This document shows, one piece after another, positions 1,496 to 21,756 of a stretch of DNA of 32,000 nucleotides (within the stretch, counting starts at the first letter, position 1; every line of letters begins with the position of its first letter). The notes beneath the pieces are model-generated. The model saw only the letters and a program-made list of their open reading frames with translations. It was not told the DNA's origin and did not search any database. Made by a program: the position numbers and the translations under genes. Location: contig NZ_CP102265.1 of assembly GCF_025147765.1 (NCBI RefSeq), positions 2,020,296-2,052,295 of the forward strand, given 5' to 3'. This stretch comes from Blautia obeum ATCC 29174 (lineage in GTDB: Bacteria > Bacillota > Clostridia > Lachnospirales > Lachnospiraceae).

Positions 1496-1515
1496 TGCCC
1501 TGTTTCCACAGGGCA
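1496..1515 (-). promoter_or_regulatory. GC-rich hairpin 34 nt downstream of VR2 (DGR target-recognition hairpin candidate)
   Basis: tgccctg-tttcca-cagggca forms a 7-bp stem with a 6-nt loop. The stem core (TGCCCT/AGGGCA) and its spacing match the hairpin after VR1 at 18501-18522. No such hairpin follows the TR. Confidence 0.6.
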
Positions 1516-1525
1516 ATACAGTTTA

Positions 1526-2686
1526 TCAGTTATCCAGTTTCCCATAATAAGCGGAGCGGAAGCCGATGCTCGTGGACGAGTAGGAACGTGGATCGCCCAG
1601 GTTCACGCCGAACACACCAGCACCCGAGGTGTCGTTCCAGTAGCCACCACAGATCGGCAAATATTCTCCGTCTGTACAATCCATATAACAATACGCATCT
1701 GGTTCCCCTGCGAATAATGCCAATTCTTTGAGCTGCTCGCTATTGCAGTTAATCTGTACATCGCTCCATCGTGTTCCAGTATAATCCTGTTCAATCTCTG
1801 GATCCGTTGTAATGCAGATGTTATCATCATCAACTGAAATTCTGATGATTTTTCCCTCATCATCTCTGATTGCTTCCCAGCAGTCCCCTTCCAGCGTCAG
1901 GTCAATATCCATAGCAGCATCATTATTCTTTGCCGTCTCCAGTACACCATTTCTGATTCGCAATCCTCTTACCATTTCCCATACGTTACCGCAAAGGTCA
2001 TGCACTCCGGTTACTTTATGATTATGTGTCCATGTTGCCGGCCCTGATCCTGTCTTTGTTTTTCCGCTCTCTTCAATCGGTTCGCCTTTTTCTTCCAAAT
2101 CTGCATGGTACTTTCCGTAATTCGTATTTCCATGTGGCAAGGTTCCATCTCTCAGGCTGAGATTTGCAAGCAGTCCCCATTCAGCCCTTGTCATCATGTG
2201 CCAGCCTTCACCTTTAGAGAAGCAAACCTCTGCTGCTTCATCATTCGTAATGTTTGTCCAAGGTTTCTGGTATGGAAGGCTATATGGTTTACCGTTGATC
2301 TCGCAGTTTGGGTAAACTGAAATATAAATCGAATCGTACTCTTTTCCTCCAACAATAAATGCCGGATGGACTTTATCACTTCCACCGAATAATTCTTTAT
2401 TTGTCACTTTACGGAACCGGTGCATAAATGATGGGATTCCTGCGTTATCGTAAATTGCTACAACTTCATGCTCCACGCCATTCTCCACCTGATCTGTTGG
2501 TGTTATCTGTTCTTCTGTACCACTTTTTTTCGGTTTAATAACCGCAGCAAATACAGACATAGATTCCGCTTCTTTCTTTTTTCTTGCAGCAAACAGCTTT
2601 GCTCTCACCATTTCTTCTGAAACAAATTCCTTAGAGCCTTTCGCTTTTACTGTAAATTCCCTTGCTTTAAAAACTGCTTTTGCCAT
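1526..2686 (-). CDS. DGR target protein 2 (FGE-sulfatase / C-type-lectin-fold, variable C-terminus)
   Basis: 386-aa ORF, paralogous to the 18544-19590 product (shared HPAF.., ..GWHMMTRAEWGLLA.., ..GNVWEMV.. motifs). The C-terminal ...LPICGGYWNDTSGAGVFGVNLGDPRSYSSTSIGFRSAYYGKLDN is encoded by VR2. Confidence 0.85.
   Translation of the reverse strand: MAKAVFKAREFTVKAKGSKEFVSEEMVRAKLFAARKKKEAESMSVFAAVIKPKKSGTEEQITPTDQVENGVEHEVVAIYDNAGIPSFMHRFRKVTNKELFGGSDKVHPAFIVGGKEYDSIYISVYPNCEINGKPYSLPYQKPWTNITNDEAAEVCFSKGEGWHMMTRAEWGLLANLSLRDGTLPHGNTNYGKYHADLEEKGEPIEESGKTKTGSGPATWTHNHKVTGVHDLCGNVWEMVRGLRIRNGVLETAKNNDAAMDIDLTLEGDCWEAIRDDEGKIIRISVDDDNICITTDPEIEQDYTGTRWSDVQINCNSEQLKELALFAGEPDAYCYMDCTDGEYLPICGGYWNDTSGAGVFGVNLGDPRSYSSTSIGFRSAYYGKLDN
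1550..1661 (-). repeat. DGR variable repeat VR2
   Basis: 112 nt align without gaps to TR 17884-17995. By my hand count there are 13 mismatches, all at plus-strand T of the TR, which is A on the coding strand. Confidence 0.9.
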
Positions 2687-2700
2687 TTTTGTTTCCTCCT

Positions 2701-2976
2701 CTATTTTCTTGTAAGTTCATCAACACAATCGTTCCAGCCGACTTTATAACTCGGCATCTTGCCTCCTTTTTGAAAGTATTCCTGATTGTATCTTCCTGTT
2801 ACTTTCATTTTTTTCGGCAATTCTCTTAACGGGCACCCTTTCATTAACTCATCCCACGAATCCGAAGCATTAAAGTTTGCATCATCATCCTGTACTGTAC
2901 ATTCGTCTGAACCGTTAAGTAAGGGACATTCCGAACAGTGTTTTGGTGTATCTATCACTAATATTGATTTGCTCAT
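2701..2976 (-). CDS. Hypothetical Cys-rich small protein
   Basis: The table start at 2991 is GTG. The first ATG is at 2976 (MSKSILV...), preceded by GGAAGG. The protein contains HCSECPLL...C motifs. Confidence 0.6.
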   Translation of the reverse strand: MSKSILVIDTPKHCSECPLLNGSDECTVQDDDANFNASDSWDELMKGCPLRELPKKMKVTGRYNQEYFQKGGKMPSYKVGWNDCVDELTRK

Positions 2977-2991
2977 TTCGTCGCCTTCCAC

Positions 2992-3306
2992 TTATGGTCT
3001 GTACATAAATGCATCAAAATCCAGATCTTTTTCTCTGGTTCTTCCTTTCTCAAACGGATAGCTACCATCCATCATTGCTTTTACATCTTGCAATTCTGCG
3101 ATAAGAGCATCTATGCTATCTGCTTTTGAGAATGTCAGAATAACTTCTGCCTGAACTGGATCCCATTCATCTTCGACAGGAACTTTTTCACCTATTTCAT
3201 GTGGCTCCTGCGTAATACAACATAGTGCCCCAACGCCATTGCTTAAGGCTCCTGTCATTCTGATATCTCCTGAACCAAATTCCATTTTTGCTTTGCCTTT
3301 TATCAT
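2992..3306 (-). CDS. Hypothetical protein
   Basis: 104-aa ORF with AGGAG upstream, tightly packed in the co-directional operon. Confidence 0.6.
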   Translation of the reverse strand: MIKGKAKMEFGSGDIRMTGALSNGVGALCCITQEPHEIGEKVPVEDEWDPVQAEVILTFSKADSIDALIAELQDVKAMMDGSYPFEKGRTREKDLDFDAFMYRP

Positions 3307-3326
3307 CTTCTAATTTCTCCTGTTCT

Positions 3327-4359: not shown

Positions 4360-5268
4360 TCAACTCCTCCAACTCTTTTTTACTCTTTCCAGTGAATATC
4401 TGGCATTATCTGTAAGCTGTCTCTGCCAGCAATTATTTTTCCGGCTCCATCTAAAGCCATTCTTTTTAAGAATATCTCTTACTTCCGCTTCCGGTTTACC
4501 ATCAAAGAAAAGCTGTAAACGCATGATTTCCGTATTTTCTACGATGCGGAAATACTCATTTTCACTTTCTGTATTTCCTTCCGTTTTAGCCGCTCTGAGC
4601 TTCTTGAGTCTGCCTTCTATCCGGTGAATCTCTGCATTATTGTTTGAAAGCTGGTATGTGGCAAAAGGCTTGTCCTCATAATGCCAGTCCTTCTGCATTT
4701 TCTCTTTCAGGCTATCGATCTGTTCCTGTGTCAATACAGGGCATCCATCTAATGTTTTATTCTTTCTGTAGTAGGCATTTGCAGCTTTCATCTTCTCCTG
4801 CAATTCCTTTAATCCGTTCAGCTTCTTTTCCAAACGTTCTACTGCATCCACATCACCAGATTTAATAATGCCCTTCCCGTTTCCAATGCTCCGGATCCGG
4901 TTAAGCATCTTCTGGATTTCCTGAAATTCTTGATAGTTTCTATCAGATGCAGCATTCTGTTTTTCTTTCTTCTTTACTGGAAAGTTCGCTGGTCCACAGA
5001 TCATAACTGATGGACACATACAACCAATGCGGCTTCGATCATTCAAATTGGCTGCCATCTTTTTGGAATATCTATCTGCAATACCGTATACCCTGTCAGC
5101 TTCCTTTGGTCTGCTCTCAGCAACCTTGTCTGCCAGATCATACGCTTCGTCAACATATCCTTTGTATTCTGCTGTCAGGCTGCCTTCCTTATAATCCCGG
5201 AATGACATCATCTCATGAGCAGACCTTGCGGACTGCTCATTGATCTCGTAATAGATTCGTTCTCTCAT
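4360..5268 (-). CDS. Hypothetical protein, DUF3560-like C-terminus (tentative)
   Basis: 302-aa ORF with an ATGA overlap onto the upstream ATPase gene. The C-terminal ..LFFDGKPEAEVRDILKKNGFRWSRKNNCWQRQ.. resembles a module I recall from DUF3560-type phage/ICE proteins. This is memory-based and needs an HMM check. Confidence 0.55.
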   Translation of the reverse strand: MRERIYYEINEQSARSAHEMMSFRDYKEGSLTAEYKGYVDEAYDLADKVAESRPKEADRVYGIADRYSKKMAANLNDRSRIGCMCPSVMICGPANFPVKKKEKQNAASDRNYQEFQEIQKMLNRIRSIGNGKGIIKSGDVDAVERLEKKLNGLKELQEKMKAANAYYRKNKTLDGCPVLTQEQIDSLKEKMQKDWHYEDKPFATYQLSNNNAEIHRIEGRLKKLRAAKTEGNTESENEYFRIVENTEIMRLQLFFDGKPEAEVRDILKKNGFRWSRKNNCWQRQLTDNARYSLERVKKSWRS

Positions 5269-6395
5269 TCTTCTTTTTCCTCCTCTTCGTCTGATAATTC
5301 ATCCAAGAATCCGTACAGCTCAATGATTTCGTCCTCATTCAGCTTAGATTCTATTCTTTCTGCAAAATCGCAAAATCTTTCACATAATGGTTTCTGGGAT
5401 TCTCTGATCTTTTTGTTTTCTTCCTCCACGTCCTCAAAATATGTAGAGGCAAGAATGACTTTCTTCTTCGCCTCAGAAACAATGACCGGCTTATAACCTC
5501 GCTTTTTTAAGGCTTCCATATCTTTCTGATCTGTAACCGGTGCTGCCTTCGCACCATATTCATTGATAAAATCTTCTGCGATCTCATTTTTGAGGTCTTC
5601 CGGTACACACTCACACATAATGTACTGACCACTGTATGAATCAATAGATTTTTTCAACAGTTCTGCATTCTGAGCATTTTCAACCATTTTGGAAGCATAC
5701 CAGCAAACATCGAATGAATTTACCATGTTTCTGTCTCTTTCCAATCTCACGTAACATGGTTTGAAGTCTACTCCAATGTCAAGTCTTGGTTCTTCGCAGA
5801 TATATAATCCTCCAACAAATATCTTTCCTTTATGTTCTGGGCTTTCCAGAATATCTCCATACATTGTTTCGATTTTCTGATAATCTCCCTGCAAATGGAG
5901 ATTGGAATTTGTGACTTTCTCATATTCTTCTGGCGAAATTCCGGAAATTTCAATCATAAGGCTATGATCTGGTACTTTCTCCCATACTGCCGCAGTTTCT
6001 ACAAAAAATGTAGGTACTAAAGCACCATCATATTTTCTGGATTTTACCAGTCTCGGTCTCCAGACTTCACGCCTGCAGTAATTGTTGAATACAACTGTTT
6101 TGCCCAATCGCAGAAGAACAACCGTTGCAATTTTGTACCCTTCTCCATGATTCCCGATCATTGCATCATCATCATTTTTAGTGGTCGTTCCGAACAGAAG
6201 TGTCTTAATATCCAGCTCGCTATGCTTGTTTCCGATTATCAGTTTTTCTTCTGCCTCGTCATATTCAAATAACATTTTGTTGCTGCTGTCTCTGGTTTCC
6301 TCATCAATGGAGTTCTGGAAGAACTCTCTCACTGCTTCTGTTACGCCCCATCCCGGGACATAATCCGCACTGATACTCAATTCATATTTTCGCAT
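5265..6395 (-). CDS. GHKL/Bergerat-fold-like ATP-binding protein (tentative)
   Basis: 376-aa ORF. REFFQNSIDE (an E..N..D N-box-like motif) and the glycine-rich GNHGEGYK are consistent with an HATPase_c-type fold. The C-terminal tail is acidic. Confidence 0.55.
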   Translation of the reverse strand: MRKYELSISADYVPGWGVTEAVREFFQNSIDEETRDSSNKMLFEYDEAEEKLIIGNKHSELDIKTLLFGTTTKNDDDAMIGNHGEGYKIATVVLLRLGKTVVFNNYCRREVWRPRLVKSRKYDGALVPTFFVETAAVWEKVPDHSLMIEISGISPEEYEKVTNSNLHLQGDYQKIETMYGDILESPEHKGKIFVGGLYICEEPRLDIGVDFKPCYVRLERDRNMVNSFDVCWYASKMVENAQNAELLKKSIDSYSGQYIMCECVPEDLKNEIAEDFINEYGAKAAPVTDQKDMEALKKRGYKPVIVSEAKKKVILASTYFEDVEEENKKIRESQKPLCERFCDFAERIESKLNEDEIIELYGFLDELSDEEEEKEE

Positions 6396-6932: not shown

Positions 6933-6940
6933 GTAATTAT

Positions 6941-6968
6941 AATTTAACACGCAGTTAGTAGTTGTCAA
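6941..6968 (-). promoter_or_regulatory. Repeated early promoter, copy A (TTGACA-16 nt-TAAATT on minus strand)
   Basis: Part of a ~45-bp sequence that recurs at 9304-9352 and 11641-11689. The -35 lies inside the last codons of the 6955-7320 gene. Confidence 0.5.
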
Positions 6969-7320
6969 TACCCTGTTTTACATTTTCCTCATTTTTGTGA
7001 GTTTTTAATTCCAGTGAATATCCCATTGTTGAAAACAATGCCTGAACACATTCATAGCTGACCTGTTCTTCATCTGTGCTTGCAAAGAAATCTGCAATTT
7101 CTTTTTCTCCCGGATCCGCTGCACCTTTCTTTTTCTCAACTACCAGATCATAGTCCAATGCTGCAAGAATCTTTCTTACTGTCTCGAAATTGGGTCTGGT
7201 ATTCTTATTCAGCTTCGTCCAAAGATTCTGCCGGGTTGTTCCCGCCTTTTCTGCCAATAAATCGTATGTCATTCCTCTGTTTGACATTTCCTCTTTGATA
7301 AATTCTACAATGTTCTGCAT
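6955..7320 (-). CDS. XRE-family helix-turn-helix transcriptional regulator
   Basis: 121-aa ORF. ..MTYDLLAEKAGTTRQNLWTKLNKNTRPNFETVRKILAAL.. is a typical HTH_XRE core. Confidence 0.75.
   Translation of the reverse strand: MQNIVEFIKEEMSNRGMTYDLLAEKAGTTRQNLWTKLNKNTRPNFETVRKILAALDYDLVVEKKKGAADPGEKEIADFFASTDEEQVSYECVQALFSTMGYSLELKTHKNEENVKQGIDNY
6985..7004. promoter_or_regulatory. Operator-like site S2: TTCCTCA-TTTTTG-TGAGTTT
   Basis: Same CTCA-N6-TGAG core. It lies 17 nt upstream of the promoter A -35. Confidence 0.4.
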
Positions 7321-9260: not shown

Positions 9261-9280
9261 TAACTCATTTTAATGTGATT
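9261..9280. promoter_or_regulatory. Operator-like site S3: TAACTCA-TTTTAA-TGTGATT
   Basis: Motif copy in the leader between promoter B and the ATG at 9245. Confidence 0.4.
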
Positions 9281-9290
9281 CCACTATTCA

Positions 9291-9310
9291 CAACTCGTTC
9301 TTATGAGTTT
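9291..9310. promoter_or_regulatory. Operator-like site S4: CAACTCG-TTCTTA-TGAGTTT
   Basis: Directly abuts the -10 of promoter B, in the +1 region. Confidence 0.5.
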
Positions 9311-9338
9311 AATATAACACGTAGGTTAGTAGTGTCAA
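9311..9338 (-). promoter_or_regulatory. Repeated early promoter, copy B (TTGACA-16 nt-TGtTATATT on minus strand)
   Basis: Consensus -35 plus an extended -10, within the ~45-bp repeat shared with copies A and C. Confidence 0.6.
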
Positions 9339-9376
9339 TACCCTCTTTTACAAAAAATGAGAAAAAAATTTAAGGA

Positions 9377-10555: not shown

Positions 10556-10825
10556 TCATATAATTTCCAGAAGCCACAAAATAAACATAATTCCTGGAAC
10601 TCCTACAGAAATTGCTCCAAGAAGCGCAGCGGTGATATTCGATTCAATTTCCTCTTTTCTCTTCGCCTCTATTTTGCGGTTTCTTCTTTCTCTTTCATTG
10701 CAGTATCTTAATATTCTTTCTGATTCCTGAATGGTCCTCTCGCTTCCGTATTCTTCCACAATTGACCATTCTCCAAAATCTGCAATCGTTACATAACCGT
10801 CCATCATTCTATGCCCCTTTTTCAT
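10556..10825 (-). CDS. Hypothetical protein with C-terminal transmembrane helix
   Basis: 89-aa ORF with the hydrophobic tail ..AALLGAISVGVPGIMFILWLLEII. The start is uncertain (10825, 10807 or 10804). Confidence 0.5.
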   Translation of the reverse strand: MKKGHRMMDGYVTIADFGEWSIVEEYGSERTIQESERILRYCNERERRNRKIEAKRKEEIESNITAALLGAISVGVPGIMFILWLLEII

Positions 10826-11190
10826 TCTTTCTCAGTTCTGGCATTTCCCTGTACCGCCCAGGGCGTAGGTTTCAATCTACGAAGTGCTTTCTTTCGTGCC
10901 ATAAAAATAGGCGATTGGGTATGTGAATTTATATGGCTGCCTCATACTTTACAACCTGTGCAGTGCTTCTCCGGTGCTTCCACTCCCGTATCTAATTTCA
11001 CTTTAAAATCAGCAAACTTGTTATCTGCCATTGAGCATTTTCAGGCGTTTTCTGCTCTGTCTTGCTTACCGCCCCTGATTTTCACCTTAAAAATCAGTAA
11101 AACTTGTTGTCCAATACCAACCGCATTGACCTACCATCATCAGCACCAGGCGGTCATTCCTGGTGGACGGTCATTTCTGACCGTTTCGGC

Positions 11191-11585
11191 TTATTCTTTT
11201 TCCCAATATCCATACAGACAGCAAGATCCAGATTCCCAAGTATCGTAGTAATATCCATCCACAACTGCTATACAGTGGTTAGCAACATTCAAAAAAATAT
11301 TCCACTTTTATGATCTTTTGCAAATCGATCAACAGTTGGACGTTTTGAACCCTTTTTATTGCTGATTCCATGATATGTAAAACCATTTTCTTTTAAATAG
11401 CTTTCATAGCATTGCTTTCCGTTTGGCATGCATTGAAGTTTTTTTGCATATGAAATAAGATCATCAAATACCTGCATCCAAGTTTTGCTCATAACTTTTG
11501 TCAATGCTCTTACTACACAATCACCGTACTGATCTTTTAAATCTTTGTCATTAGGCTGATAGTATTTATAGTTTCTGCTTGCCAT
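11191..11585 (-). pseudogene. Frameshifted small Cys...His peptidase-like gene (break at an A7/T7 tract, 11291-11297)
   Basis: The 98-aa ORF stops right after a T7 run (..KSGIFF*). The -1 frame continues with no start codon as LNVANHCIAVVDGYYYDTWESGSCCLYGYWEKE* down to 11191. Joined, the product is ~131 aa with GDCVVRA near the N-terminus and NHC..DTW near the C-terminus. Confidence 0.55.
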
Positions 11586-11627
11586 TCTTTTTCTCCTTTT
11601 TCGTTATGTTGAGTTTTCTATTTTTTC

Positions 11628-11647
11628 AAACTCGTTTTATTGAGTTT
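11628..11647. promoter_or_regulatory. Operator-like site S6: AAACTCG-TTTTAT-TGAGTTT
   Basis: Directly abuts the -10 of promoter C. A partial extra copy (CGTTATGTTGAGTTT) lies at 11602-11616. Confidence 0.5.
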
Positions 11648-11675
11648 AATATAACACGTAGTAGGTAGGTGTCAA
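11648..11675 (-). promoter_or_regulatory. Repeated early promoter, copy C (TTGACA-16 nt-TGtTATATT on minus strand)
   Basis: Same ~45-bp repeat as copies A and B. It heads the minus-strand early block. Confidence 0.6.
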
Positions 11676-11718
11676 TACCCTATTTTACATAATTTGAGTT
11701 TTTTCTTAGTGAAGCTCA

Positions 11719-11789: not shown

Positions 11790-12815
11790 ATGAAAAAGAG
11801 AACATTTTTTACCCCCCCCCCGAAAAAATCTGACAATTTAGTAGTCACTTCTTTTCGTAAGATTCTTTGTTTATCTTCCTGTGCCATAATCGGACTTATT
11901 TCTTTAGGCTGCTCCAATGTCACTGCGCAAGAACAAACGTCTACATCTGAAAAAGCTGCTCAGATTTCTTCTTTTTCGGATTACTCTTGGGGTACTTCCT
12001 ACGATGATATTTATTCAGATCAAATAACCTCAGACATGAAAGAGACTGTTGATTATCAATGTGATGAATCTAATGATATTTCTGCATTAACGCTTCTACA
12101 TCAAGAAGTTGCAGGCTATTCAGATGTTTCTTCCTCCTATCTTTTTTCAGATAATAAGCTCATTGCTGGAAGCTACGATCTTGACATTGATGATACGGCA
12201 TTTGATGATTTATCAAAAAAAATCGCTCAAACATATGAAAAGCCTTATCTTGAAAAGGAATCTACTGGTTGGGGAAAATTATCCATCTGGATTGATGATT
12301 CCAAGGATGTAATAACATTATCAGAAATGCTTGGTATTACTTTTTTTGAGGCAGACAGTCCTTGCCTTGAATTTTTAAATGATCAATTTATCGAATTTCA
12401 TGACGTTGATCTCGTGTCAGAAATAAAAAAATATAATAACTTGGATGGACTTTCAGAATCGGCTTCTGATTCTTCCAACCCCCTACTGAATGCGCAAGTT
12501 GTTACTGCTCCGGTAAAAAGTGGAGATAATTCTAAAACGCTTGGAACCTATGCATATATCAGCATTGCTAAGGACATTTTAAAAACGGTTACTTTAGAAC
12601 AATTCACTGAATTTGCACAAACAGTGGTTGATAACAGTGGTTATAACTGGTTCTCCATCATCTGTGAAGATGGAACTGGTATCTGTTTTTCTGGATCAGA
12701 TATCTACTATCCTTCATACGGAAAATTAGATACAGATGGAGCAATTACAGACGGATATGGTGATATTACATGGGATTTTAATACAAACTCATACACGTAT
12801 ACACCACGACAATAA
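11790..12815 (+). CDS. Secreted lipoprotein, hypothetical (moron-like; only plus-strand gene)
   Basis: 341-aa ORF with AGGAG 8 nt upstream. The signal peptide carries the lipobox ..IIGLISLGC|S. It is oriented opposite to every other gene. Confidence 0.8.
   Translation: MKKRTFFTPPPKKSDNLVVTSFRKILCLSSCAIIGLISLGCSNVTAQEQTSTSEKAAQISSFSDYSWGTSYDDIYSDQITSDMKETVDYQCDESNDISALTLLHQEVAGYSDVSSSYLFSDNKLIAGSYDLDIDDTAFDDLSKKIAQTYEKPYLEKESTGWGKLSIWIDDSKDVITLSEMLGITFFEADSPCLEFLNDQFIEFHDVDLVSEIKKYNNLDGLSESASDSSNPLLNAQVVTAPVKSGDNSKTLGTYAYISIAKDILKTVTLEQFTEFAQTVVDNSGYNWFSIICEDGTGICFSGSDIYYPSYGKLDTDGAITDGYGDITWDFNTNSYTYTPRQ
11812..11821 (+). repeat. C10 homopolymer inside codons 8-11 of the lipoprotein gene
   Basis: The sequence is ttttttaCCCCCCCCCCgaaaaaa. 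The tract is currently in frame (TPPPK). Confidence 0.95.
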
Positions 12816-13132
12816 TTTTTCTTTTTATTGGATTTTCACAAAATTTAAGTCTGGGTTTTATAAATATCTCACGAAAATGAGCCGATTTTCCAACATTTGT
12901 TGGCTTTAATTTGTCAGCCGCTTTTCAGCCTTTGGCTGACTGAGACTTAGGTTTAGAATAAGATTAAGAGAAAAGATAAAGATATATGCTCATTTGCACC
13001 AGCTTTTCCTCCAACAATGTCAGGGACAAATTGGCTTACAAGCGGCTTGACGAGATTTAAGCTTAGTATTTGAGTATATAAATATAGTTATTACATATGC
13101 TCTGTTTGCACCGGGATTATCCCGGGACAAAT

Positions 13133-13163
13133 AAAAAAAATCCCGACACCATCAGGCATCGGG
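13133..13163 (-). terminator. Rho-independent terminator (minus strand)
   Basis: In minus-sense RNA there is a 9-bp stem (two G.U pairs) with a tetraloop, followed by A and U8. On the plus strand the same stem would carry two C-A mismatches and has no U tail. Confidence 0.6.
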
Positions 13164-13173
13164 GAAGGGTAGT

Positions 13174-13193
13174 AAACTCAATATTTTGAAGTT
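13174..13193. promoter_or_regulatory. Weak operator-like site S9: AAACTCA-ATATTT-TGAAGTT
   Basis: The left half is perfect and the right half degenerate. It overlaps the -35 of the candidate antitoxin RNA promoter. Confidence 0.25.
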
Positions 13194-13220
13194 GACATTT
13201 TACTCGCAACAGCATATGAT
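13192..13220 (+). promoter_or_regulatory. Promoter of candidate antitoxin sRNA (TTGACA-17 nt-TATGAT)
   Basis: Near-consensus sigma-70/sigA hexamers with 17-nt spacing in an ORF-free region. It points at the bidirectional terminator ~45 nt away. Confidence 0.6.
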
Positions 13221-13226
13221 AATAAC

Positions 13227-13305
13227 AGCTAAGCAAGCTGATGAAATTGCATTAGGCAAAATGAAAACCCCTGAAAGTGGTCCAGACTTTCAGGGGTTTT
13301 CTATT
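13227..13305 (+). ncRNA. Candidate antisense antitoxin RNA (RNA II-like) of an Fst/par-type type I TA
   Basis: Predicted ~75-nt transcript from the 13192-13220 promoter to the 13264-13300 terminator. It contains two direct repeats of the toxin translation-initiation region: 13231-13245 vs 13413-13427 (14/15) and 13247-13256 vs 13434-13443 (10/10). Convergent transcription makes these repeats complementary at the RNA level. Confidence 0.55.
13264..13300. terminator. Bidirectional rho-independent terminator
   Basis: aaaacccctgaaagt-ggtccag-actttcaggggtttt forms a perfect 15-bp stem with a 7-nt loop. An A-run on one side and a T-run on the other allow it to function on both strands. Confidence 0.8.
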
Positions 13306-13349
13306 CCGTTTATGTAAGGTGGCTTATGCCTTTAGGCTGTCTGCGCTGC

Positions 13350-13439
13350 TTATTCATCTCCATCCAGCCATTTGCAAATGTAGTAGCTAATTACACCTGC
13401 TACGATAGAGACAAGCAAACTGATGAATAAATCTTGCAT
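13350..13439 (-). CDS. Fst-like type I toxin (29-aa hydrophobic peptide)
   Basis: Hand translation gives MQDLFISLLVSIVAGVISYYICKWLDGDE*. GGAAGGAGGTGA lies 6 nt upstream of the ATG. It has a single TM-like helix and an acidic tail, similar in layout to pAD1 Fst (MKDLMSLVIAPIFVGLVLEMISRVLDEEDDSRK, recalled from memory). Confidence 0.65.
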   Translation of the reverse strand: MQDLFISLLVSIVAGVISYYICKWLDGDE

Positions 13440-13446
13440 TAGGTTT

Positions 13447-13468
13447 CACCTCCTTCCTGCCGGAGGTG
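13447..13468 (-). promoter_or_regulatory. SD-sequestering hairpin in the toxin 5' leader
   Basis: In minus-sense RNA, CACCUCC-ggcaggaa-GGAGGUG forms a hairpin whose 3' arm is the toxin Shine-Dalgarno sequence. Confidence 0.55.
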
Positions 13469-13480
13469 CGCAGCAAAATT

Positions 13481-13509
13481 ATGTTATCACATTACACATA
13501 TTTCTACAA
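13481..13509 (-). promoter_or_regulatory. Candidate toxin mRNA promoter (TTGTAG-17 nt-TGaTAACAT)
   Basis: Extended -10 with a partial -35, immediately after the endolysin stop codon. It predicts a ~210-nt mRNA ending at the bidirectional terminator. Confidence 0.4.
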
Positions 13510-13518
13510 TCAGATTTT

Positions 13519-15024
13519 TCATCTGAGCAGAATGCTTTTCCAAGTTGCTGGCCCTGCGCATCCATCTACACTCAGGCCTTTCTTGGTCTGGTATGTCTTG
13601 ATCGCATATACTGTATTGGTTCCGCATTCTCCATCAATGGTCAGGTTCTTTCCGTCCTTCCCTTTGAATCCATTACTTTTCAGTAATCTCTGTAATAGCT
13701 TAACATCGTTTCCTTTGCTTCCGTTCTGAACGTTTCCTACGCTAAACATATATCCGCTGCCTCCTGTCGTTGTTGTGGTGGTATTTGTCGTGCTTCCTTT
13801 TCCTGTATTGGAACCATTATCAACAGTTACGTTTACATGGTGTCCTGTGTTCAGGTTGATATCTCCTCTCTTTGCAAGGCTTGAATCTTTCAGGTACCGT
13901 CCCTGCAGAACTGTAAAATATTTCTTTCCCTTTGCAGAATTGAAATAATCCATCATGTTACCGGTATATGTAGCATTACATTCCTGCAACTCTTTGATGC
14001 CTTTCAGGTGCCCTACCGCCTGAATAAGTACAATTGTTTCCTCGCTACAATCGCATTCGCAAGGCTTTGCGATTTTGGAAGGGCGATACCCTACCGCTTT
14101 CATCTGCTGTCGGAACGTATAACGATCAGTGGAATTTCCTGCTGTTCCCTGGTCGTAACCGATCATATCATTCAGTGCTGCTTCGATGGCCAGATCAGCA
14201 AACAGATTTCCAAGACTTTCATCCTTCCATCGAAGAATATAATTCCATCCACCAGTTGGATATGCATACCAGGAGCGCAGATACCATTCTGTTCCGGTCT
14301 GGTCCCCTGCTTTTCCTCCTGCATATCTCCCGTTTTCGTCATGCCCACAATTTGACATTCTTACTGCCACTGTAGTTCCTCCCTTCTGTTCTGTGCCTCC
14401 ATCAGCATATTTTGTAATAAACTCATACACTTTTTTCTGGCGTGTAGTGTAATCCCCGACCTGATTCGGCTTCGGGTCGGCAGGATCCGTATTCAATGCT
14501 GCATAAATTCCTTTTGCCGTGTATGGTTTTGCTGTTTTTGCCAGAATCCGTTTTAATGCGGATGCACCGCCTTGATGATAGATGTTAATGCACTCCATCA
14601 TAGCTGCATCTGGCATGGCTCCGTACATCTTGCCAAGGCTGACAGCATATTCTTTGATCTGCGTTTCCATCAATTCATCCTGACATTTAATACCAACCGC
14701 CGAGGAAATAATTGCAATGATGCATTTCCCTTTGGCTGATGCGGAAGATACTCCATATCTGTCCCAGCTCTTTTTCAGATCAGCAGCAATACCGGCAGTG
14801 TCAAGTTTGGAAAAATCCTTCGGATATTTCTTCTGGATATTCTGCAATAGCAGTCTCGCTTCGCCTGCATACCACTGACCGGCTCCAATCGTGATTGCTT
14901 TTTCATTTGGAGTATTTGCTCCTACTCCTGCAAATGCAGAATAATTTTGGCGGCCATATACCTGACCGCCACTTTCCACAGCATATAGAATTTTTCTCAA
15001 TACAGTAATGTTTTGCTGTTTCAT
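13519..15024 (-). CDS. Multidomain cell-wall hydrolase (endolysin) with C-terminal PG_binding_1 domain
   Basis: The table start is TTG. ATG at 15024 has GGAGGTGA upstream. The N-terminus looks lysozyme-like (..YAVESGGQVYG..), the central segment is ..SNCGHDENGRYAGGKAGDQTGTEW.., and the C-terminal ..LLQRLLKSNGFKGKDGKNLTIDGECGTNTVYAIKTYQTKKGLSVDGCAGPATW.. is a peptidoglycan-binding repeat. It sits after the holin genes. Confidence 0.8.
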   Translation of the reverse strand: MKQQNITVLRKILYAVESGGQVYGRQNYSAFAGVGANTPNEKAITIGAGQWYAGEARLLLQNIQKKYPKDFSKLDTAGIAADLKKSWDRYGVSSASAKGKCIIAIISSAVGIKCQDELMETQIKEYAVSLGKMYGAMPDAAMMECINIYHQGGASALKRILAKTAKPYTAKGIYAALNTDPADPKPNQVGDYTTRQKKVYEFITKYADGGTEQKGGTTVAVRMSNCGHDENGRYAGGKAGDQTGTEWYLRSWYAYPTGGWNYILRWKDESLGNLFADLAIEAALNDMIGYDQGTAGNSTDRYTFRQQMKAVGYRPSKIAKPCECDCSEETIVLIQAVGHLKGIKELQECNATYTGNMMDYFNSAKGKKYFTVLQGRYLKDSSLAKRGDINLNTGHHVNVTVDNGSNTGKGSTTNTTTTTTGGSGYMFSVGNVQNGSKGNDVKLLQRLLKSNGFKGKDGKNLTIDGECGTNTVYAIKTYQTKKGLSVDGCAGPATWKSILLR

Positions 15025-16382: not shown

Positions 16383-16578
16383 TGTTCTCACCTCCTTCCC
16401 ATCCTGACGTTTCTTCTTGCCATTCCACATCGTCTGCATCTGCATACGGGCGGCACATGGCCTCTATGACATCCAGATCATTGTGTATCTGGTCAAGACT
16501 TTTGTTTGATTTTCCGTCAATATAGAACAGGAGGTCATAAACCGCAGACCATAGCTTCGCTATAATTTTCAACTTCAT
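16375..16578 (-). CDS. Hypothetical small protein
   Basis: 67-aa ORF. Its start overlaps the RT 3' end by 44 nt (AGGAG upstream) and its stop overlaps the XhlA-like ATG. Confidence 0.4.
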   Translation of the reverse strand: MKLKIIAKLWSAVYDLLFYIDGKSNKSLDQIHNDLDVIEAMCRPYADADDVEWQEETSGWEGGENNG

Positions 16579-17674
16579 AGGCTATTTCTCCTACAACCTT
16601 GTTTCTATCAAGAACCACTGAATCTATCAGTTCTTTTCGGAACTCTTTGCAATCGCAGTGATCCAGCATGCCCAAATAAGATTTTAATGTGGCAGTTACC
16701 ACTTCCATCTCGATCAGTCCGGCGTTGTATTCCTCTACTTTTCTTCTGAGATGGCGCTTCATCTCCAATGTGGTGCTTTTCCTGATAGTTACATAATGCG
16801 GCCATATCCGATAGCCTACGAACTCTATGCCCTGCGATATCGGGCGTATGCAAGTCTTTTGGTTCAGAGATAACCGTAACGTTGTTTCCACAAACTTCTG
16901 GATTTCATCTTTCCACATGTGAAGCTGCTCTTTGCTGTCCGACAGAATGATAATATCATCCATGTATCTGACATAAAAATGGATGCACAGTGTCCTTTTA
17001 CAGAACTGATCCAGTGCATCCAAGTAAATATTTGCAAATACCTGCGATAGCAGATTTCCTACCGGCATACCTACATCGTAAAGCCTTTCCTCCAAAGGCA
17101 CCTCTCCAGGACCTTTACCAGGCGGTAATCCAAATGGCGTATACTGGCAATCTATAATGTTATACAGGACTTGCAAAAGCTGTTGATCTTTGATTTTCCT
17201 TGCCAGAATCTCCTTCAATACTTCGTGAGATATCCGGTAAAAATATTTGCTGATATCCAGTTTAAGGTAATACCATGTGCCAGGCTTATGTTCTACGGAT
17301 TTTATCCAATATCGCAGTCTTTGCATGGCAGCAAGCGAACCTCTTCCTGGAATACAGCCGTAAGTATCTTTGATATATCCTTTTACCAACAGGGGATTTA
17401 TGACACGATATATCGCCCATTGCACAATGCGGTGATAAAACGTGATTGACATGATCATTCTCTTTTTAGGTTCATAAACATAAAAGATATAATACTTATC
17501 AATCGTGTATTTACCAGAGCGTACATCCTGTTGTATCTGTTCAATGACATTCCAAATATCGTGCTGGACGCGAAGAACATCTTTGTTGTATCTTCTGCCT
17601 TTTGACGCATCTTGGATTGCCTCATACAGATTGTCGTCAGAGAATATCAAGTCAAAAACATGCTTGATTTTCAT
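16535..17674 (-). CDS. DGR reverse transcriptase
   Basis: 379-aa ORF with the YMDD catalytic box (..VRYMDDIIILSD..) and the VGNLLSQ motif, the [LIV]GxxxSQ signature typical of DGR RTs. It is adjacent to the TR and avd. Confidence 0.9.
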   Translation of the reverse strand: MKIKHVFDLIFSDDNLYEAIQDASKGRRYNKDVLRVQHDIWNVIEQIQQDVRSGKYTIDKYYIFYVYEPKKRMIMSITFYHRIVQWAIYRVINPLLVKGYIKDTYGCIPGRGSLAAMQRLRYWIKSVEHKPGTWYYLKLDISKYFYRISHEVLKEILARKIKDQQLLQVLYNIIDCQYTPFGLPPGKGPGEVPLEERLYDVGMPVGNLLSQVFANIYLDALDQFCKRTLCIHFYVRYMDDIIILSDSKEQLHMWKDEIQKFVETTLRLSLNQKTCIRPISQGIEFVGYRIWPHYVTIRKSTTLEMKRHLRRKVEEYNAGLIEMEVVTATLKSYLGMLDHCDCKEFRKELIDSVVLDRNKVVGEIAYEVENYSEAMVCGL

Positions 17675-17883
17675 TGATTTTCCCTCTGTTTTTCATTATT
17701 TCGTTGTGTTTGGCGGTTTTCTCATAGGTACTGGCAGCCTCCACAACCGATGCCACATCTGCAGAACGCCATCAACATAGCACCATTTTTCTCCTGCTTT
17801 TCAGCCGGAGTGGAAACAGGTTCCTTTATCCCCTCGCACTGTCGGTAGTCCTTGGAGTTTCCGATTCTGGCATATGAGGGTAG

Positions 17884-17999
17884 AGCGGAGCGGAAGCCGA
17901 TGTTCGTGTTCGAGTTGGAACGTGGATTGTTCAGGTTCACGTTGAACACACCAGCATTCGAGGTGTTGTTCCAGTTGCCACCACAGATCGGCAAACGCT
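17884..17999 (-). repeat. DGR template repeat (TR)
   Basis: 116 nt homologous to VR1 (112 nt to VR2). Read in the VR frame it encodes ..CGGNWNNTSNAGVFNVNLNNPRSNSNTNIGFRSA with 11 Asn codons (9 AAC, 2 AAT). It is non-coding and lies between avd and the RT. Confidence 0.9.
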
Positions 18000-18023
18000 A
18001 TAACCCATTCCCTACGAAAATAC

Positions 18024-18476
18024 TCAATGTCTTTTATATCGACTGTTTCCATATCTGGAGGATTTCTGCTGCTGAGTAGCCGTATTGTCAGCATCAGAGT
18101 TTGCTCCATTCACCGTATTAATAAAACCACCTATCATTCTGCCTATTTCTTCTGAACGTCTAGTCCATTCTTTGTAGCTGGACAGTCCTTTCAGAATATT
18201 CAGATCATATGCTACTTTGATAAATTCTTGCAGAGTTTTATTCTCTCTGTCAAAATCTCCAAGAGTGGTTTTCTTGTAGTATTTCTCCCTGATATCTACT
18301 GATAATCGAAGCAATTTCTTCATGCAATCCATCAGATCGTTTCCGATGGCGTATTTATCTGCAATGCTCCATTTCTTTATAAGCGGATATGCATAGTCTA
18401 TCATGTCTTCGACCTTCTGAAGAATCTGGAAGGAATCATCTTTTGTGACAGTTCCGGTGTTCTGGCTTTCCTCCAT
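18024..18476 (-). CDS. avd: DGR accessory variability determinant (Avd-like four-helix-bundle protein)
   Basis: 150-aa ORF between the target gene and the TR. ..YAYPLIKKWSIADKYAIGNDLMDCMKKLLRLSV..EIGRMIGGFI.. matches the Avd / 23S-rRNA-IVS-protein family pattern. Confidence 0.8.
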   Translation of the reverse strand: MEESQNTGTVTKDDSFQILQKVEDMIDYAYPLIKKWSIADKYAIGNDLMDCMKKLLRLSVDIREKYYKKTTLGDFDRENKTLQEFIKVAYDLNILKGLSSYKEWTRRSEEIGRMIGGFINTVNGANSDADNTATQQQKSSRYGNSRYKRH

Positions 18477-18500
18477 ACTTTCGCAGCCTCCATTTTTCTA

Positions 18501-18522
18501 CTGCCCTACTACCGTAGGGCAG
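18501..18522 (-). promoter_or_regulatory. GC-rich hairpin 36 nt downstream of VR1 (DGR target-recognition hairpin candidate)
   Basis: ctgcccta-ctaccg-tagggcag forms an 8-bp stem with a 6-nt loop. Its counterpart follows VR2 at 1496-1515. Confidence 0.6.
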
Positions 18523-18543
18523 AACAGTACACAGTTCTCAGTT

Positions 18544-19590
18544 TTACAGTTCACAGTAAGCGGAGCGGAAGCCGATGCTCGCGTCCGAGCTGGAACGCGG
18601 ATTGCCCAGGTACACGCTGAACACACCAGCACTCGAGGTGCTGAGCCAGCGGCCACCACAGATCGGCAAACGCTCGCCAGAGTTATTCATATAATGACCA
18701 TCACCACCGTAATCACCACCCGGTTCATCAGGATAAATTAACAAAGCTTTAGCAATCTCAGGAACCGTTAATGCAGAATCAAGTGTCATATTCTGATATG
18801 TGTCACCTCTCCAAGTGTCTTCTGGCGTAATATCACCAGATGTAAGCTGGATATGTCCGCTCACATAGTTATATTTCAGAGTACCGGCAGTTCCAGGCTC
18901 AACCAGTGTGCCATCTGCTGCAATGGCTTTCCAAAGGGTGGAGCTTGCACCCATGCTTGCATCAGCGGCCATGCAGTTTGCATATGGAATGATCTGGATT
19001 TCCCCATTCATCAGTCGCATACCTGCACACCATTCCCAAACATTACCGTTCAGGTCTGCAATTCCATCAGGCATCCAGTTATGGTTCCATGTATTCGGTC
19101 CGGATCCGGTTGCGCATCTGGCAATTTTCCCACTCTCGTAATAAGTCGGAACGCCTTTTTCATGTCCATATGCGTGATCGGCTCCGTAATTGTTATTGCC
19201 TCTCGGCATGGTTCCGTTTTTACGACACCATAAAGCAATAGCAGACCACAGGGAATAAGGTGTAAGGCTCCATCCTTTCCCTTTATTTCGACAATATGTA
19301 ACTGCCTGATCGAAATTAAGGCTTGCTCTTGGGTCACGCATCGGGAGGGAATATCCACGTTCATTCAGGACAATGTTCTGATATTTTGAAACATAGATAA
19401 CGCTCTTTTCTACTCCGTCCACACTGAATGCCGGGTGAATGTTTTCACTTCCTCCTGCAATCAGGTCAGACATTTTCAGTTTCGGGAATGGAACCATTAC
19501 AGAAGGCATTCCCAGATCATCAAATAATACGGTGTTTTTCCCACCGGACAGTGCTTCAATAGATAACTTTAAATCGTCAAAATTCGGCAT
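18544..19590 (-). CDS. DGR target protein 1 (FGE-sulfatase / C-type-lectin-fold; likely receptor-binding tail-fibre tip)
   Basis: 348-aa ORF, the last gene of the tail-fibre region. It carries ..GWSLTPYSLWSAIALW.. and ..GNVWEWCAG.. motifs. The C-terminal ..LPICGGRWLSTSSAGVFSVYLGNPRSSSDASIGFRSAYCEL is encoded by VR1. Confidence 0.88.
   Translation of the reverse strand: MPNFDDLKLSIEALSGGKNTVLFDDLGMPSVMVPFPKLKMSDLIAGGSENIHPAFSVDGVEKSVIYVSKYQNIVLNERGYSLPMRDPRASLNFDQAVTYCRNKGKGWSLTPYSLWSAIALWCRKNGTMPRGNNNYGADHAYGHEKGVPTYYESGKIARCATGSGPNTWNHNWMPDGIADLNGNVWEWCAGMRLMNGEIQIIPYANCMAADASMGASSTLWKAIAADGTLVEPGTAGTLKYNYVSGHIQLTSGDITPEDTWRGDTYQNMTLDSALTVPEIAKALLIYPDEPGGDYGGDGHYMNNSGERLPICGGRWLSTSSAGVFSVYLGNPRSSSDASIGFRSAYCEL
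18559..18674 (-). repeat. DGR variable repeat VR1
   Basis: 116 nt align without gaps to TR 17884-17999. By my hand count there are 15 mismatches, all at plus-strand T of the TR, which is A on the coding strand. Confidence 0.9.
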
Positions 19591-20130: not shown

Positions 20131-20619
20131 TTAGATGCCTCCTCTCACATAACACCGAACTGCAACGCTTGAAGCAGAACCGGTATATTTGATTTTGAAT
20201 CCATTCAGTAATTTGTCGCTGATTTCAAATTCACCAGCCGCACCACCGGTAACGCTTACAACCTCAACAGTGATCGTATAATCCTTGGTATTTCTTGGAG
20301 TAACAATCTGTAAGGTTTTGATGGAATTGTTATGTGGATATACCTGGCTGTTCGTCAGAGTGGCTTCGATTACCTCTCCAGTAATTCCTTTCAGCTCCTC
20401 ATTCTGTCTCAGCAACATTCTCATTGCTTCGGAAGACATCAGCATAGCTTCCAGTGCTGCCAAATCCATAATATTGAAATTTGTTGCATTCTGCGGAGTT
20501 CCCTGTGTTCTTACTGTTCCAGGTGATCTCTGCAAGGTAACCTTGTCCCCCTCAACAGTCTGTGCGAATCTATTTGGAAATTCGCATACCATGTCTTTCC
20601 AGTTTACAAGACTTCTCAT
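20131..20619 (-). CDS. Putative tail-fibre / receptor-binding module protein
   Basis: 162-aa ORF after the baseplate genes. The N-terminal ..EFPNRF..V.L...PGTV.Q.GTP.NA.N.N.. pattern recalls fibre N-termini of Firmicutes phages. This call is memory-based. Confidence 0.5.
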   Translation of the reverse strand: MRSLVNWKDMVCEFPNRFAQTVEGDKVTLQRSPGTVRTQGTPQNATNFNIMDLAALEAMLMSSEAMRMLLRQNEELKGITGEVIEATLTNSQVYPHNNSIKTLQIVTPRNTKDYTITVEVVSVTGGAAGEFEISDKLLNGFKIKYTGSASSVAVRCYVRGGI

Positions 20620-20637
20620 TTTCTCACCTTCTTTCCG

Positions 20638-20958
20638 TTATGATGTTTTCAGGACTTCTGATATTTCCAACTGCACGATATAAGAAAAGCCCTCTGCAAC
20701 AGAATCCATTTTCAATCGTTCTGCCTTAGAGAGCCATAACTGGTTATCTGTATCATACAGCTGCACTTCTGACACTTCACCGGATCCGGAAGATAACTCA
20801 ATCTTGAAAGCTATCTCCAGCATTCCATCGGAAGTAGTTGTTACCGATTCAATCGGCACCTTGTAATAGGTTGAGCCTACTTTGTACTTTGCGTATGCAA
20901 TCCGGCGTTTCGTATAATCACGATACCCCTGAATAGCTGCACTTGTAAGTAATGCCAT
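20638..20958 (-). CDS. Hypothetical tail protein
   Basis: 106-aa ORF in the structural operon. Confidence 0.55.
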   Translation of the reverse strand: MALLTSAAIQGYRDYTKRRIAYAKYKVGSTYYKVPIESVTTTSDGMLEIAFKIELSSGSGEVSEVQLYDTDNQLWLSKAERLKMDSVAEGFSYIVQLEISEVLKTS

Positions 20959-20976
20959 TCTGGAACCTCCTTCTTT

Positions 20977-21756
20977 TTATATTCCTAATGCATCACCGCA
21001 GATAGGATATACCACTTTCCAGCTTTCGGTTTTTACCTTCGGAAGTACATTTCCTCCTGCTGTCTGCAATTCGGTACTAATTATTGGATATATACCGGCA
21101 TTTCCAGAATCACCGGCTACTGGGTATACTGTTTTTACAGCCTGTACCGCTGTTTTTACAGTAATTCCGTCATAGGCTATGCCTAATCCCATATTTACGT
21201 CTGGAAGCAAGCCTGCCTGTATAAAACGTTTCTCCCACGCTTCTGTTTCTATGCTTAACCCAAGACTTACTTTACATGTGCATTTCGTCTGGAAAGGAAT
21301 GTGTGCCGGTATTCTCCTACTGATGATTTTCTGCAGTATTCCTAAAGAAATAAAGCCACTATCGTTGTTGTTAAATTCAACACACAGAGTGTCTCCATCC
21401 CAGTACACTTTTCCTTCGTGTCCGGTATATGCCTTGATGAGCTGCAAAATAACGCTGCCACTCAAATGACCGGTTCCAGAATAATATATTTCAACTATTC
21501 TTCGCCGTTCTTCAATGGTAAGCTCTGCATCGTGTTCAATTCCAAGCATCCTTTCATACGCAAGTAAAGTTGGAAGATCGGCCTGTGAAGGAAACAGGTT
21601 CTTAACCTCCTGCTCCATCTTCTTTGCCAGAATATCCAGAAGCCACCCTTCAAACATATAGACGGCATTCATTTCTCTGTACTCTGTCCACCACTTTGGA
21701 CCGTAGCTGACAATTTCTTCATATCCAGGTGAAGATGAATTATAAAATATTTCCAT
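20977..21756 (-). CDS. XkdU/YmfQ-like (DUF2313) baseplate/tail protein
   Basis: 259-aa ORF following the baseplate J gene. ..YERMLGIEHDAELTIEERRRIV.. is typical of this family. Confidence 0.6.
   Translation of the reverse strand: MEIFYNSSSPGYEEIVSYGPKWWTEYREMNAVYMFEGWLLDILAKKMEQEVKNLFPSQADLPTLLAYERMLGIEHDAELTIEERRRIVEIYYSGTGHLSGSVILQLIKAYTGHEGKVYWDGDTLCVEFNNNDSGFISLGILQKIISRRIPAHIPFQTKCTCKVSLGLSIETEAWEKRFIQAGLLPDVNMGLGIAYDGITVKTAVQAVKTVYPVAGDSGNAGIYPIISTELQTAGGNVLPKVKTESWKVVYPICGDALGI

Follow-up and report, generated by a model that had tools for sequence, protein, structure and literature searches.

The window analyzed here, a 32,000-nt stretch of DNA from Blautia obeum ATCC 29174, is an integrated prophage whose diversity-generating retroelement (DGR) combines one template repeat (TR) and one reverse transcriptase (RT) with two paralogous target genes. 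The first target, T1, adjoins the cassette. The second, T2 (1526-2686, - strand), is the third gene from the prophage end and encodes a protein of 386 aa that is identical to RUMOBE_01114 / WP_005424448.1. The 3' end of T2 is formed by a 112-nt variable repeat, VR2 (1550-1661, - strand, codons 343-379), at a distance of 16.2 kb from the TR. With high probability, T2 is an active second target of the same single cassette, so that one DGR would keep two paralogous binding proteins hypervariable in the prophage of a common human gut commensal.

A repeat search of the whole window returned a single three-copy family at 1543-1661, 17877-17995, and 18552-18670. The middle copy was identified as the TR (17884-17999, - strand), since it sits on the - strand between the bAvd gene and the RVT_1 RT gene. 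In the ungapped register, VR2 (1550-1661) and the TR (17884-17995) align over 112 nt with 13 mismatches, all 13 of which fall on the 27 TR adenines of this stretch (hypergeometric P = 6e-10 for 13/13 by chance). The variable repeat of T1, VR1 (18559-18674), differs from the TR at 15 positions, again exclusively at adenines (15/15). The likeness to the TR breaks off sharply on either side of VR2. In the reading frame of T2, the repeat holds 15 diversifiable codons at aa 345-374, and 11 of these are AAY in the TR. Across the three closest related IMG/VR contigs, the TR sequence was 100% identical. A preliminary description of this DNA had read the last ~37 codons of the 1526-2686 gene as a second copy of the TR with differences at adenines only. 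Re-alignment agreed on both counts, as no non-adenine difference appeared in the VR2 of the window.

The cassette itself occupies the - strand from the RT gene to T1. The RT gene (16535-17674, - strand) encodes 379 aa with a match to PF00078 (RVT_1) at E 4.5e-22 and a YMDD-type motif within HFYVRYMDD, and the Avd accessory protein (18024-18476, - strand, 150 aa) matched PF22296 bAvd at E 1.8e-19. The RT and Avd genes are intact. T1 (RUMOBE_01076, 18544-19590, - strand, 348 aa) closes the baseplate/tail module, in which 20131-21756 encodes baseplate or fibre proteins. In the window as well as in two pairs of IMG/VR contigs (L023+L002 and L022+L003), the cassette and T2 lie on one contiguous, collinear stretch. 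Both pairs showed 94-98% identity to the window from the baseplate genes to ssb, save for two short replaced segments.

Further copies of the VR2 site were collected by sequence outside the VR only, to avoid bias. Two IMG/VR contigs (L002 and L003) came from a protein-based search, nine metagenome contigs (L101-L109) from exact matches to 42 nt that lie downstream of the VR, and one copy (L110) from the prophage of Blautia sp. MSJ-19. Together with the window, they form a set of 13 copies, which includes one chimera, L108. VR2 was different in each of the twelve further copies, with 10-16 differences at TR adenines and 0-2 at other positions. Among the 13 copies, all of the 27 TR-adenine columns were variable, compared to 5 of the 85 other columns. 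The mean pairwise difference amounted to 15.3% in VR2, 2.5-3.4% in the rest of the T2 gene, and 1.2% in the 120 nt downstream, which contain the spacer and hairpin described below. VR1 was also variable in the same genomes, and long contigs (47-151 kb) as well as the isolate genome gave the same VR2 pattern. Because the variation is concentrated at the adenine columns (27/27 versus 5/85), T2 is regarded as a genuine and repeatedly diversified target and not as a decayed paralogue. The adenine-position variation for which the preliminary description had suggested looking was thus found, at the level of differences between assemblies.

Protein clusters gave a matching picture. The 15 members of the T2 cluster at 90% identity carried 15 distinct VR peptides, and all of the 15 predicted variable codons varied (15/15). 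This cluster contains 4071 distinct sequences. Identical copies of the T2 sequence occurred on 23 contigs, compared to 392-443 for those of SSB, Avd, and orf376. The T1 cluster at 90% identity was not used as a control, as it comprised 19 members only, many of them fragments.

Three irregularities were observed among the VR2 copies. A recurrent change of AT to CG (Ile to Arg) at codon 345 (1653-1654), where the TR reads AT, includes a non-adenine T to G substitution and was present in the VR2 of L003, L102, L107, and L109 as well as in the VR1 of L023. As this position is close to the 5' end of the VR, the change may be either an old, seldom overwritten polymorphism or a dinucleotide misincorporation. 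Directly 5' of VR2 (window 1662-1664), L102 and L107 read GCG as in TR/VR1 and not ATA, by which Tyr342 is replaced by Arg, and position 342 was variable among the members of the T2 cluster, too. This GCG fits an integration of cDNA whose 5' boundary varies, as is expected for DGRs (Wu 2018, PMC5758913). Lastly, L108 (ENA OZEB01021167, 1115 nt, coverage 1.9) runs from the 5' flank of T1 through the VR into the 3' flank of T2. It was rejected as a thirteenth VR2 owing to this chimeric structure at ~2x coverage and is most likely an assembly chimera formed via the 112-nt repeat, which serves as a warning for metagenome-based DGR surveys.

The sequence elements at the 3' side of VR2 were compared to those known from BPP-1, in which retrohoming requires a hairpin/cruciform (Guo et al. 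2011, PMC3240598). The hairpins of phage DGRs have a GC-rich stem of 7-10 bp and a 5'-GRNA loop and lie 4-34 bp from the VR (PMC3240598). In the window, VR2 ends in the GC-rich 19-mer CATCGGCTTCCGCTCCGCT (1550-1568, - strand), which is invariant and occupies a position like that of an IMH (initiation of mutagenic homing) element. The 19-mer CATCGGCTTCCGCTCCGCT is the same in TR, VR1, and VR2, and the divergence between VR and TR starts directly after it. Past this point, the flanks of VR1 and VR2 are alike, and both are unlike that of the TR. A 34-nt spacer (1516-1549, - strand), which holds the stop codon and three ACTG repeats, separates VR2 from a hairpin of the form TGCCCTGT-GGAA-ACAGGGCA (1496-1515, - strand). 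It has an 8-bp GC-rich stem and a 4-nt loop, lies 34 nt past the VR, and yielded a centroid DNA fold of -9.2 kcal/mol with a z-score of -2.6. The GGAA loop fits the 5'-GRNA consensus. The corresponding hairpin of VR1 (18501-18522, - strand) has a 9-bp stem and a GGTA loop and lies 36 nt past VR1. Both the downstream hairpin and the ACTG spacer are lacking at the TR. By its sequence and place, the element at 1496-1515 is recognizable as the DGR target-recognition hairpin/cruciform. As both VR sites fit the description by Guo et al. and the TR is without either element, VR2 has the full set of known cis requirements.

The spacers between VR and hairpin (1516-1549 and 18523-18558) contain 3-5 ACTG repeats with a period of 7-8 nt. 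This motif was found after T1-type and T2-type VRs in many relatives (L001, L007-L010, L024, L026, L032, and L113-L118) and never after a TR. It may be an additional element of target recognition, and no discussion of it in this role was found in the DGR literature compared.

By analogy with mutagenic retrohoming in BPP-1, the TR RNA would be reverse transcribed with misincorporation opposite adenines, and the resulting cDNA would replace VR1 or VR2, acting in trans over 16 kb of the same phage genome. Each replacement would rewrite the 15 codons named above (11 AAY), which would lie on the surface with which a TaqVP-like C-type-lectin domain binds its ligand. The earlier proposal that VR2 is diversified in trans by the cassette at 16535-19590 is in line with the adenine-only mismatches, the cis elements, the intact RT and Avd genes, and the variation of the twelve other copies.

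Many gut phage contigs and metagenome-assembled genomes of Clostridia encode proteins that resemble T2 (50-66% identity) more than T1. The T2 clade comprises 937 homologues. These T2-type relatives never adjoin an avd or RT gene. Where the context was visible, ssb followed 1-4 kb downstream, and a primase often lay upstream. For three T2-type contigs for which the RT locus was also retrieved, and for Faecalibacterium phage FP_Lagaffe, VR2 could be compared to the local TR. The numbers of adenine and non-adenine differences were 12/1, 12/0, and 9/0 in the three distant relatives and 11/0 in Lagaffe.

Lagaffe is a small temperate myovirus of gut Firmicutes (PMC5883640, PMC11792537) in which the baseplate genes are succeeded by T1 (gp26) and then by avd, the TR, and the RT gene, as in the window. 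Lagaffe is known to produce virions. A second paralogous target, gp40, is ~40% identical to gp26 and lies ~9 kb downstream, where it heads a recombination/replication module of exonuclease, Gam, Erf, and SSB. Both VRs of Lagaffe differ from the TR at adenines only, and both vary across cognate genomes. T2 and gp40 share 38.5% identity, and the host family differs. Further differences concern the spacer repeats, which read (A/C)TCTG in Lagaffe and ACTG in the window, and the integration system, which is an IS30-type transposase-integrase in Lagaffe compared to a large serine recombinase by the attachment (att) site in the window's relative L105. Unlike gp40, T2 in the window ranks third from the prophage end, with orf225 and ssb right after it.

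Among annotated relatives, XCD04237 of Dulem virus 37 (PP511443.1) is closest to T2 with 65.7% identity. Like the window, this virus has a T1-avd-TR-RT cassette and, 8-10 kb further downstream, a second target surrounded by non-structural genes, and an identical hairpin and ACTG spacer follow both of its VRs. Unlike in the window, its T2 is placed between a lysis cassette and an integrase, near a methyltransferase, a SprT-like protein, and Lar, and not by ssb. Its VR2 shows several non-adenine differences. Both DGR targets of Dulem virus 37 (L001, 13203-14282 and 24248-25393) are publicly annotated as “CalU17 biosynthetic pathway protein” and the TR region (14808-15023) as “enediyne biosynthetic pathway protein”. 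These labels, of which CalU17 refers to calicheamicin biosynthesis, are evident mis-annotations for DGR components. As the split into T1 and T2 and the non-structural position of T2 are common to the distant relatives, Dulem virus 37, and Lagaffe, both are old and conserved. The synteny comparison with related phages that the preliminary description had recommended places T2 outside the structural genes, including in Lagaffe and Dulem virus 37.

Several points weigh against reading T2 as an active target. The TR of the window was assumed for the short metagenome contigs, as their own TRs were not recovered, and a few non-adenine differences (0-2 per copy) were present in VR2, at a rate that is similar in VR1. 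The variation between samples records past and repeated diversification in the lineage and not activity in this lysogen. The 23 contigs with the exact T2 sequence are probably re-assemblies of ATCC 29174, and no heterogeneity within the strain was seen. Furthermore, the non-adenine differences in the VR2 of Dulem virus 37 indicate that a second target can decay in some lineages. The same observation favors the view that VR2 of the window is itself a fossil, in which a TR-like 3' end was kept after the rewriting had ceased. This is hardly credible, since neutral decay would strike all four bases and the flanks as well. Instead, the 27 adenine columns vary while 80 of the 85 others do not, the divergence of VR2 is 5-6 times that of the gene body, the cis elements on the 3' side differ by 1.2%, and the 4071 distinct sequences belong to a single 90%-identity cluster. 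The adenine-only pattern together with the population comparison rules out decay or chance for the lineage.

The diversity of VR2 could also be an artefact, produced by assemblers that swapped in VR1 via the 112-nt repeat or by gene conversion between VR1 and VR2. L108 (1.1 kb, ~2x), with its link between the T1 5' flank and the T2 3' flank, would fit such an exchange, as would the TR/VR1-like GCG in place of ATA directly 5' of VR2 in L102 and L107. However, 11 of the 12 other copies are T2-specific on both sides of the VR, so that a double switch would be needed in each of them, and the long contigs and the isolate genome agree with the short ones. All VR2 copies differ from each other and from the four VR1 copies, VR2 has its own hairpin and spacer, and the GCG of L102 and L107 matches the TR, as expected from a variable 5' boundary of the cDNA. 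An artefact is accordingly given very little credence. Highly improbable as well is a location of T2 on another mobile element (a satellite or a neighboring prophage, for example) that borrows the DGR of the myophage. In its favor, homology in L110 (MSJ-19) runs only from ~11852 to just past ssb, an early block of ~11.7 kb, and the lysogeny region is mosaic. Yet the L110 locus ended 10 kb upstream, which leaves the DGR region outside the visible part, whereas the window is collinear with L023+L002 and L022+L003 over the whole stretch between the baseplate genes and ssb, at 94-98% identity and save for the two short replaced segments. The satellite-like element was rejected on this collinearity and on the complete genomes of Lagaffe and Dulem virus 37, each of which carries both targets in one phage.

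As a protein, T2 shares 39% identity with T1 over T2 aa 78-380, and phrog_2889 is a strong match for both T2 (E 8e-104) and T1. The two therefore share the same type of core, as had been suggested from the sequence before. PF03781 matched T1 and T2 weakly and below the curated cut-off (22.9 bits for T2 versus 23.3). With a profile of 48 homologues, the T2 core aligned to PDB 5VF4 (TaqVP) at E 8e-57 over aa 69-373. An AlphaFold2 model of T2 with a predicted local distance difference test (pLDDT) score of 77.8 matched the same structure in Foldseek at E 1e-25 with a template modeling (TM) score of 0.68-0.70. According to the model, the core of T2 (aa ~78-380) has a TaqVP-like C-type-lectin fold of the FGE (formylglycine-generating enzyme) subtype with the VR at its C-terminus.

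TaqVP (5VF4, PMC6328139) belongs to the DGR of a Thermus aquaticus prophage and is a monomeric, single-domain C-type-lectin protein of the FGE subtype (PMC6328139). It aligns with the whole T2 core (aa ~69-380) at 28-29% identity. The aligned part covers TaqVP residues 26-383, and the basic extension of ~75 residues in T2 has no aligned counterpart. Unlike T2, TaqVP is the sole and cassette-adjacent target of its DGR. Mtd of BPP-1 (1YU0-1YU4) is likewise a DGR-diversified C-type-lectin domain with a C-terminal VR. It acts in receptor binding as a part of the tail fibres, and retrohoming in BPP-1 needs a GC-rich IMH and a GRNA hairpin, while this phage has a single target. The structural likeness of T2 to Mtd is weak (TM ~0.3). 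Foldseek comparisons of the T2 model with 1YU0-1YU4 gave TM scores of 0.29-0.31 at E 3.5e-3 and root-mean-square deviations above 13 A. Mtd-type proteins have an N-terminal beta-prism and a beta-sandwich domain, by which they form an obligate trimer and attach to the fibre. T2 does not fit this type, and its N-terminus is predicted as a long helix.

The N-terminal extension of T2 (2456-2686, - strand, codons 1-77) is without counterpart in T1. Residues 1-55 have an isoelectric point (pI) of 10.3 and a net charge of +8.5, and aa 19-47 are predicted, with low-to-moderate confidence, to form a long helix. A distinct, basic N-terminal extension of ~75 aa had already been recognized in the preliminary description, and these values agree with it. 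Among T2 orthologues, the extension is similar in length and poorly conserved in sequence. A helical N-terminal region of comparable length occurs in VHML ORF35, a single target that follows the tail-fibre gene in a tail module, so that the remote paralogue is not alone in having an extension of this sort. Neither a signal peptide nor a membrane or hydrophobic segment was found in the T2 sequence, and no effector domain was detected in T2.

Transcription of the prophage proceeds from the tail sheath, tube, XkdN-type chaperone, tape measure, and baseplate W/J/I-like genes to T1, avd, the TR, and the RT gene, followed by an endolysin and a divergent region. Three promoters, small early genes, orf376, the primase-like gene (4360-5268), further small genes, T2, orf225, and ssb (181-630, - strand) complete the order. 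T2 is thus placed between the primase-like gene and ssb, the last prophage gene, and its position among small early-type genes near ssb is as had been noted earlier. The promoter nearest to T2 (6941-6968, - strand) was identified in a promoter scan as a near-consensus extended -10 promoter with 10-11/12 matches and TG, and two further copies of the same extended -10 promoter start at 9338 and 11675 (- strand). No strong terminator was predicted between the 6941-6968 promoter and T2, and this promoter therefore likely drives the T2 operon. The ATG of T2 is preceded by a GGAGGA ribosome-binding site. Homology to the relatives restarts 14 nt ahead of the start codon, which leaves T2 without a conserved promoter of its own and makes read-through from the early operon the simplest explanation of its transcription.

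The promoters are embedded in repeats of ~44-75 nt on the - strand that occur in three copies ~2.3 kb apart (11647-11690, 9310-9353, and 6940-6983, as well as 11616-11661 and 9279-9324), each with a promoter of the form TTGACA-16-TG-TATATT/TAAATT. They probably are co-regulated early promoters with a common operator sequence. The segment at 2701-3313 (orf96 and orf104) was swapped for unrelated sequence in every relative examined, which marks a mosaic junction directly upstream of T2. A similarity between the N-terminus of T2 and orf104 (repeat D6, 73% over 40 nt) was treated as chance, as the match at the protein level was unconvincing.

For the role of T2, a second ligand-binding protein that acts outside the cell, either on the virion or released by lysis, is tentatively preferred; it would function as a receptor-binding protein or adhesin. 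The closest homologues with a known context (T1, VHML ORF35, and “antireceptor” proteins of Pseudoalteromonas phages) lie in tail modules, the structural neighbors of T2 among viral proteins are mostly C-termini of tail fibres, and the TR is common to T2 and its tail-module paralogue, so that both targets would draw on the same repertoire of binding surfaces. The helical N-terminal extension resembles that of VHML ORF35. A location in a late structural module, as is usual for a virion protein, was not found, for T2 lies between the primase-like gene and ssb downstream of early-type promoters.

This position suggests, as the next candidate and with somewhat less probability, that T2 is an early cytoplasmic binder outside the virion. 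Its hypervariable face would track a variable target inside the cell, such as a host defence protein (counter-defence) or part of a competing phage (superinfection exclusion). The gene has the same orientation as the early genes, lies downstream of their repeated promoters, and has no late or structural neighbor. Orthologues with 50-66% identity and the Lagaffe counterpart (38%) keep this position, and the T2 sequence has no signal peptide. The neighbors of T2 in Dulem virus 37 include a methyltransferase and Lar, and second distal VRs have been reported near counter-defence genes (PMC12629997). In bacteria, cytoplasmic C-type-lectin DGR targets have been described (PMC10907252). Besides the tail-module homologues, the structural neighbors among tail fibres, and the shared TR, the lack of an effector domain in T2 speaks against a cytoplasmic role. 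Bolder, and rather unlikely, is the claim that Lagaffe-like gut myophages have a conserved, early-expressed binder in the cytoplasm that is diversified by the DGR, with T2 as its founding example. If T2 were cytoplasmic, a single TR would feed T1, as a receptor-binding protein of the tail, as well as an intracellular protein whose face tracks variable host defence proteins or competing phages. Phage DGRs would then serve counter-defence or superinfection exclusion besides host-range switching, and a T2 outside the virion would give them a second, intracellular job. As ATCC 29174 is cultured, the role of T2 is directly testable.

A remote second target had been called unusual in the preliminary description, which overstated the case. 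Non-adjacent second targets within the same prophage were described as common (Wu et al. 2018, PMC5758913), and extra targets of phage-associated DGRs typically lie <50 kb away and presumably within one prophage (PMC5758913). A 2024 study of Faecalibacterium prophages found the second VR in Lagaffe_CP (PMC11792537). It reported adenine-specific variation at both VRs across cognate genomes and two Mtd-like targets with 40% identity, whose function it called intriguing. A 2025 Nature paper described four gut prophages with a second distal VR (PMC12629997). There, the second VRs lie away from the RT cassette in non-tail regions near counter-defence genes. Tentaclin-carrying phages provide a further two-target example (PMC10743442). 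In Treponema denticola and the surveyed DGRs (PMC5758913, PMC12629997), one TR and RT serve several VRs in trans, as in the window, while the survey systems belong to other phage groups, mostly of Bacteroidota in PMC12629997. The two-target DGR of B. obeum is a well-supported further case of a known arrangement and as such confirmatory, not new. No published account of a DGR in a B. obeum prophage was found in the literature, and the conserved primase-T2-ssb position is described in none of the remote-target papers found. The interest of T2 therefore centres on its conserved non-structural place in a replication/recombination operon, which extends out to Lagaffe.

The end of the prophage was located by the flanks of the relatives. 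Homology among them stops ~80-100 nt past the ssb stop codon, at ~94-100 of the window, and three kinds of flank diverge at this point, which therefore marks the prophage end. In Blautia sp. MSJ-19 (L110, 13518-21158), the flank encodes a DUF6553 protein, an M16 peptidase, an Era-like GTPase (GTPase and KH domains), RecO, and a class II tRNA synthetase, and the first ~100 nt of the window match this host flank. In L105 (1968-3710), a convergent large serine recombinase of 580 aa follows, and this flank possibly represents the circular form. In L002 (12653-20114), the flank holds an unrelated tail module of the siphovirus type, in which genes for a tail terminator, a major tail protein, a tape measure, and a tail protein follow ssb. 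Since the three kinds of flank diverge at one point, it was rejected as a second tail module of the same phage. No tRNA gene was found within the 32,000-nt window.

Among the neighboring genes, orf225 (839-1516) follows directly after T2 in several relatives with 52-98% identity and has a very basic C-terminal tail, and orf376 (5265-6395, phrog_6077) lies ahead of the primase-like gene. Pfam and PHROG gave no informative function for orf225, orf376, orf185, orf96, orf341(+), or orf145(+). Between the lysis genes and the early region, an open reading frame of 341 aa without a family match (11790-12815, + strand) is followed by ~700 nt without a long open reading frame (12816-13518), and the whole of 11790-13518 is a mosaic lysogeny region. 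A full-length match to the type II hammerhead ribozyme RF02276 was detected at 11125-11191 (- strand) with 50.2 bits against a gathering threshold of 37 and E 1.2e-7. It lies in the early region downstream of the 11675 promoter and is antisense to a + strand open reading frame at 10811-11248. The tape-measure gene (25341-29978, 1545 aa) contains three diverged direct repeats of ~44 nt at 25921-26174, spaced 102-108 nt apart.

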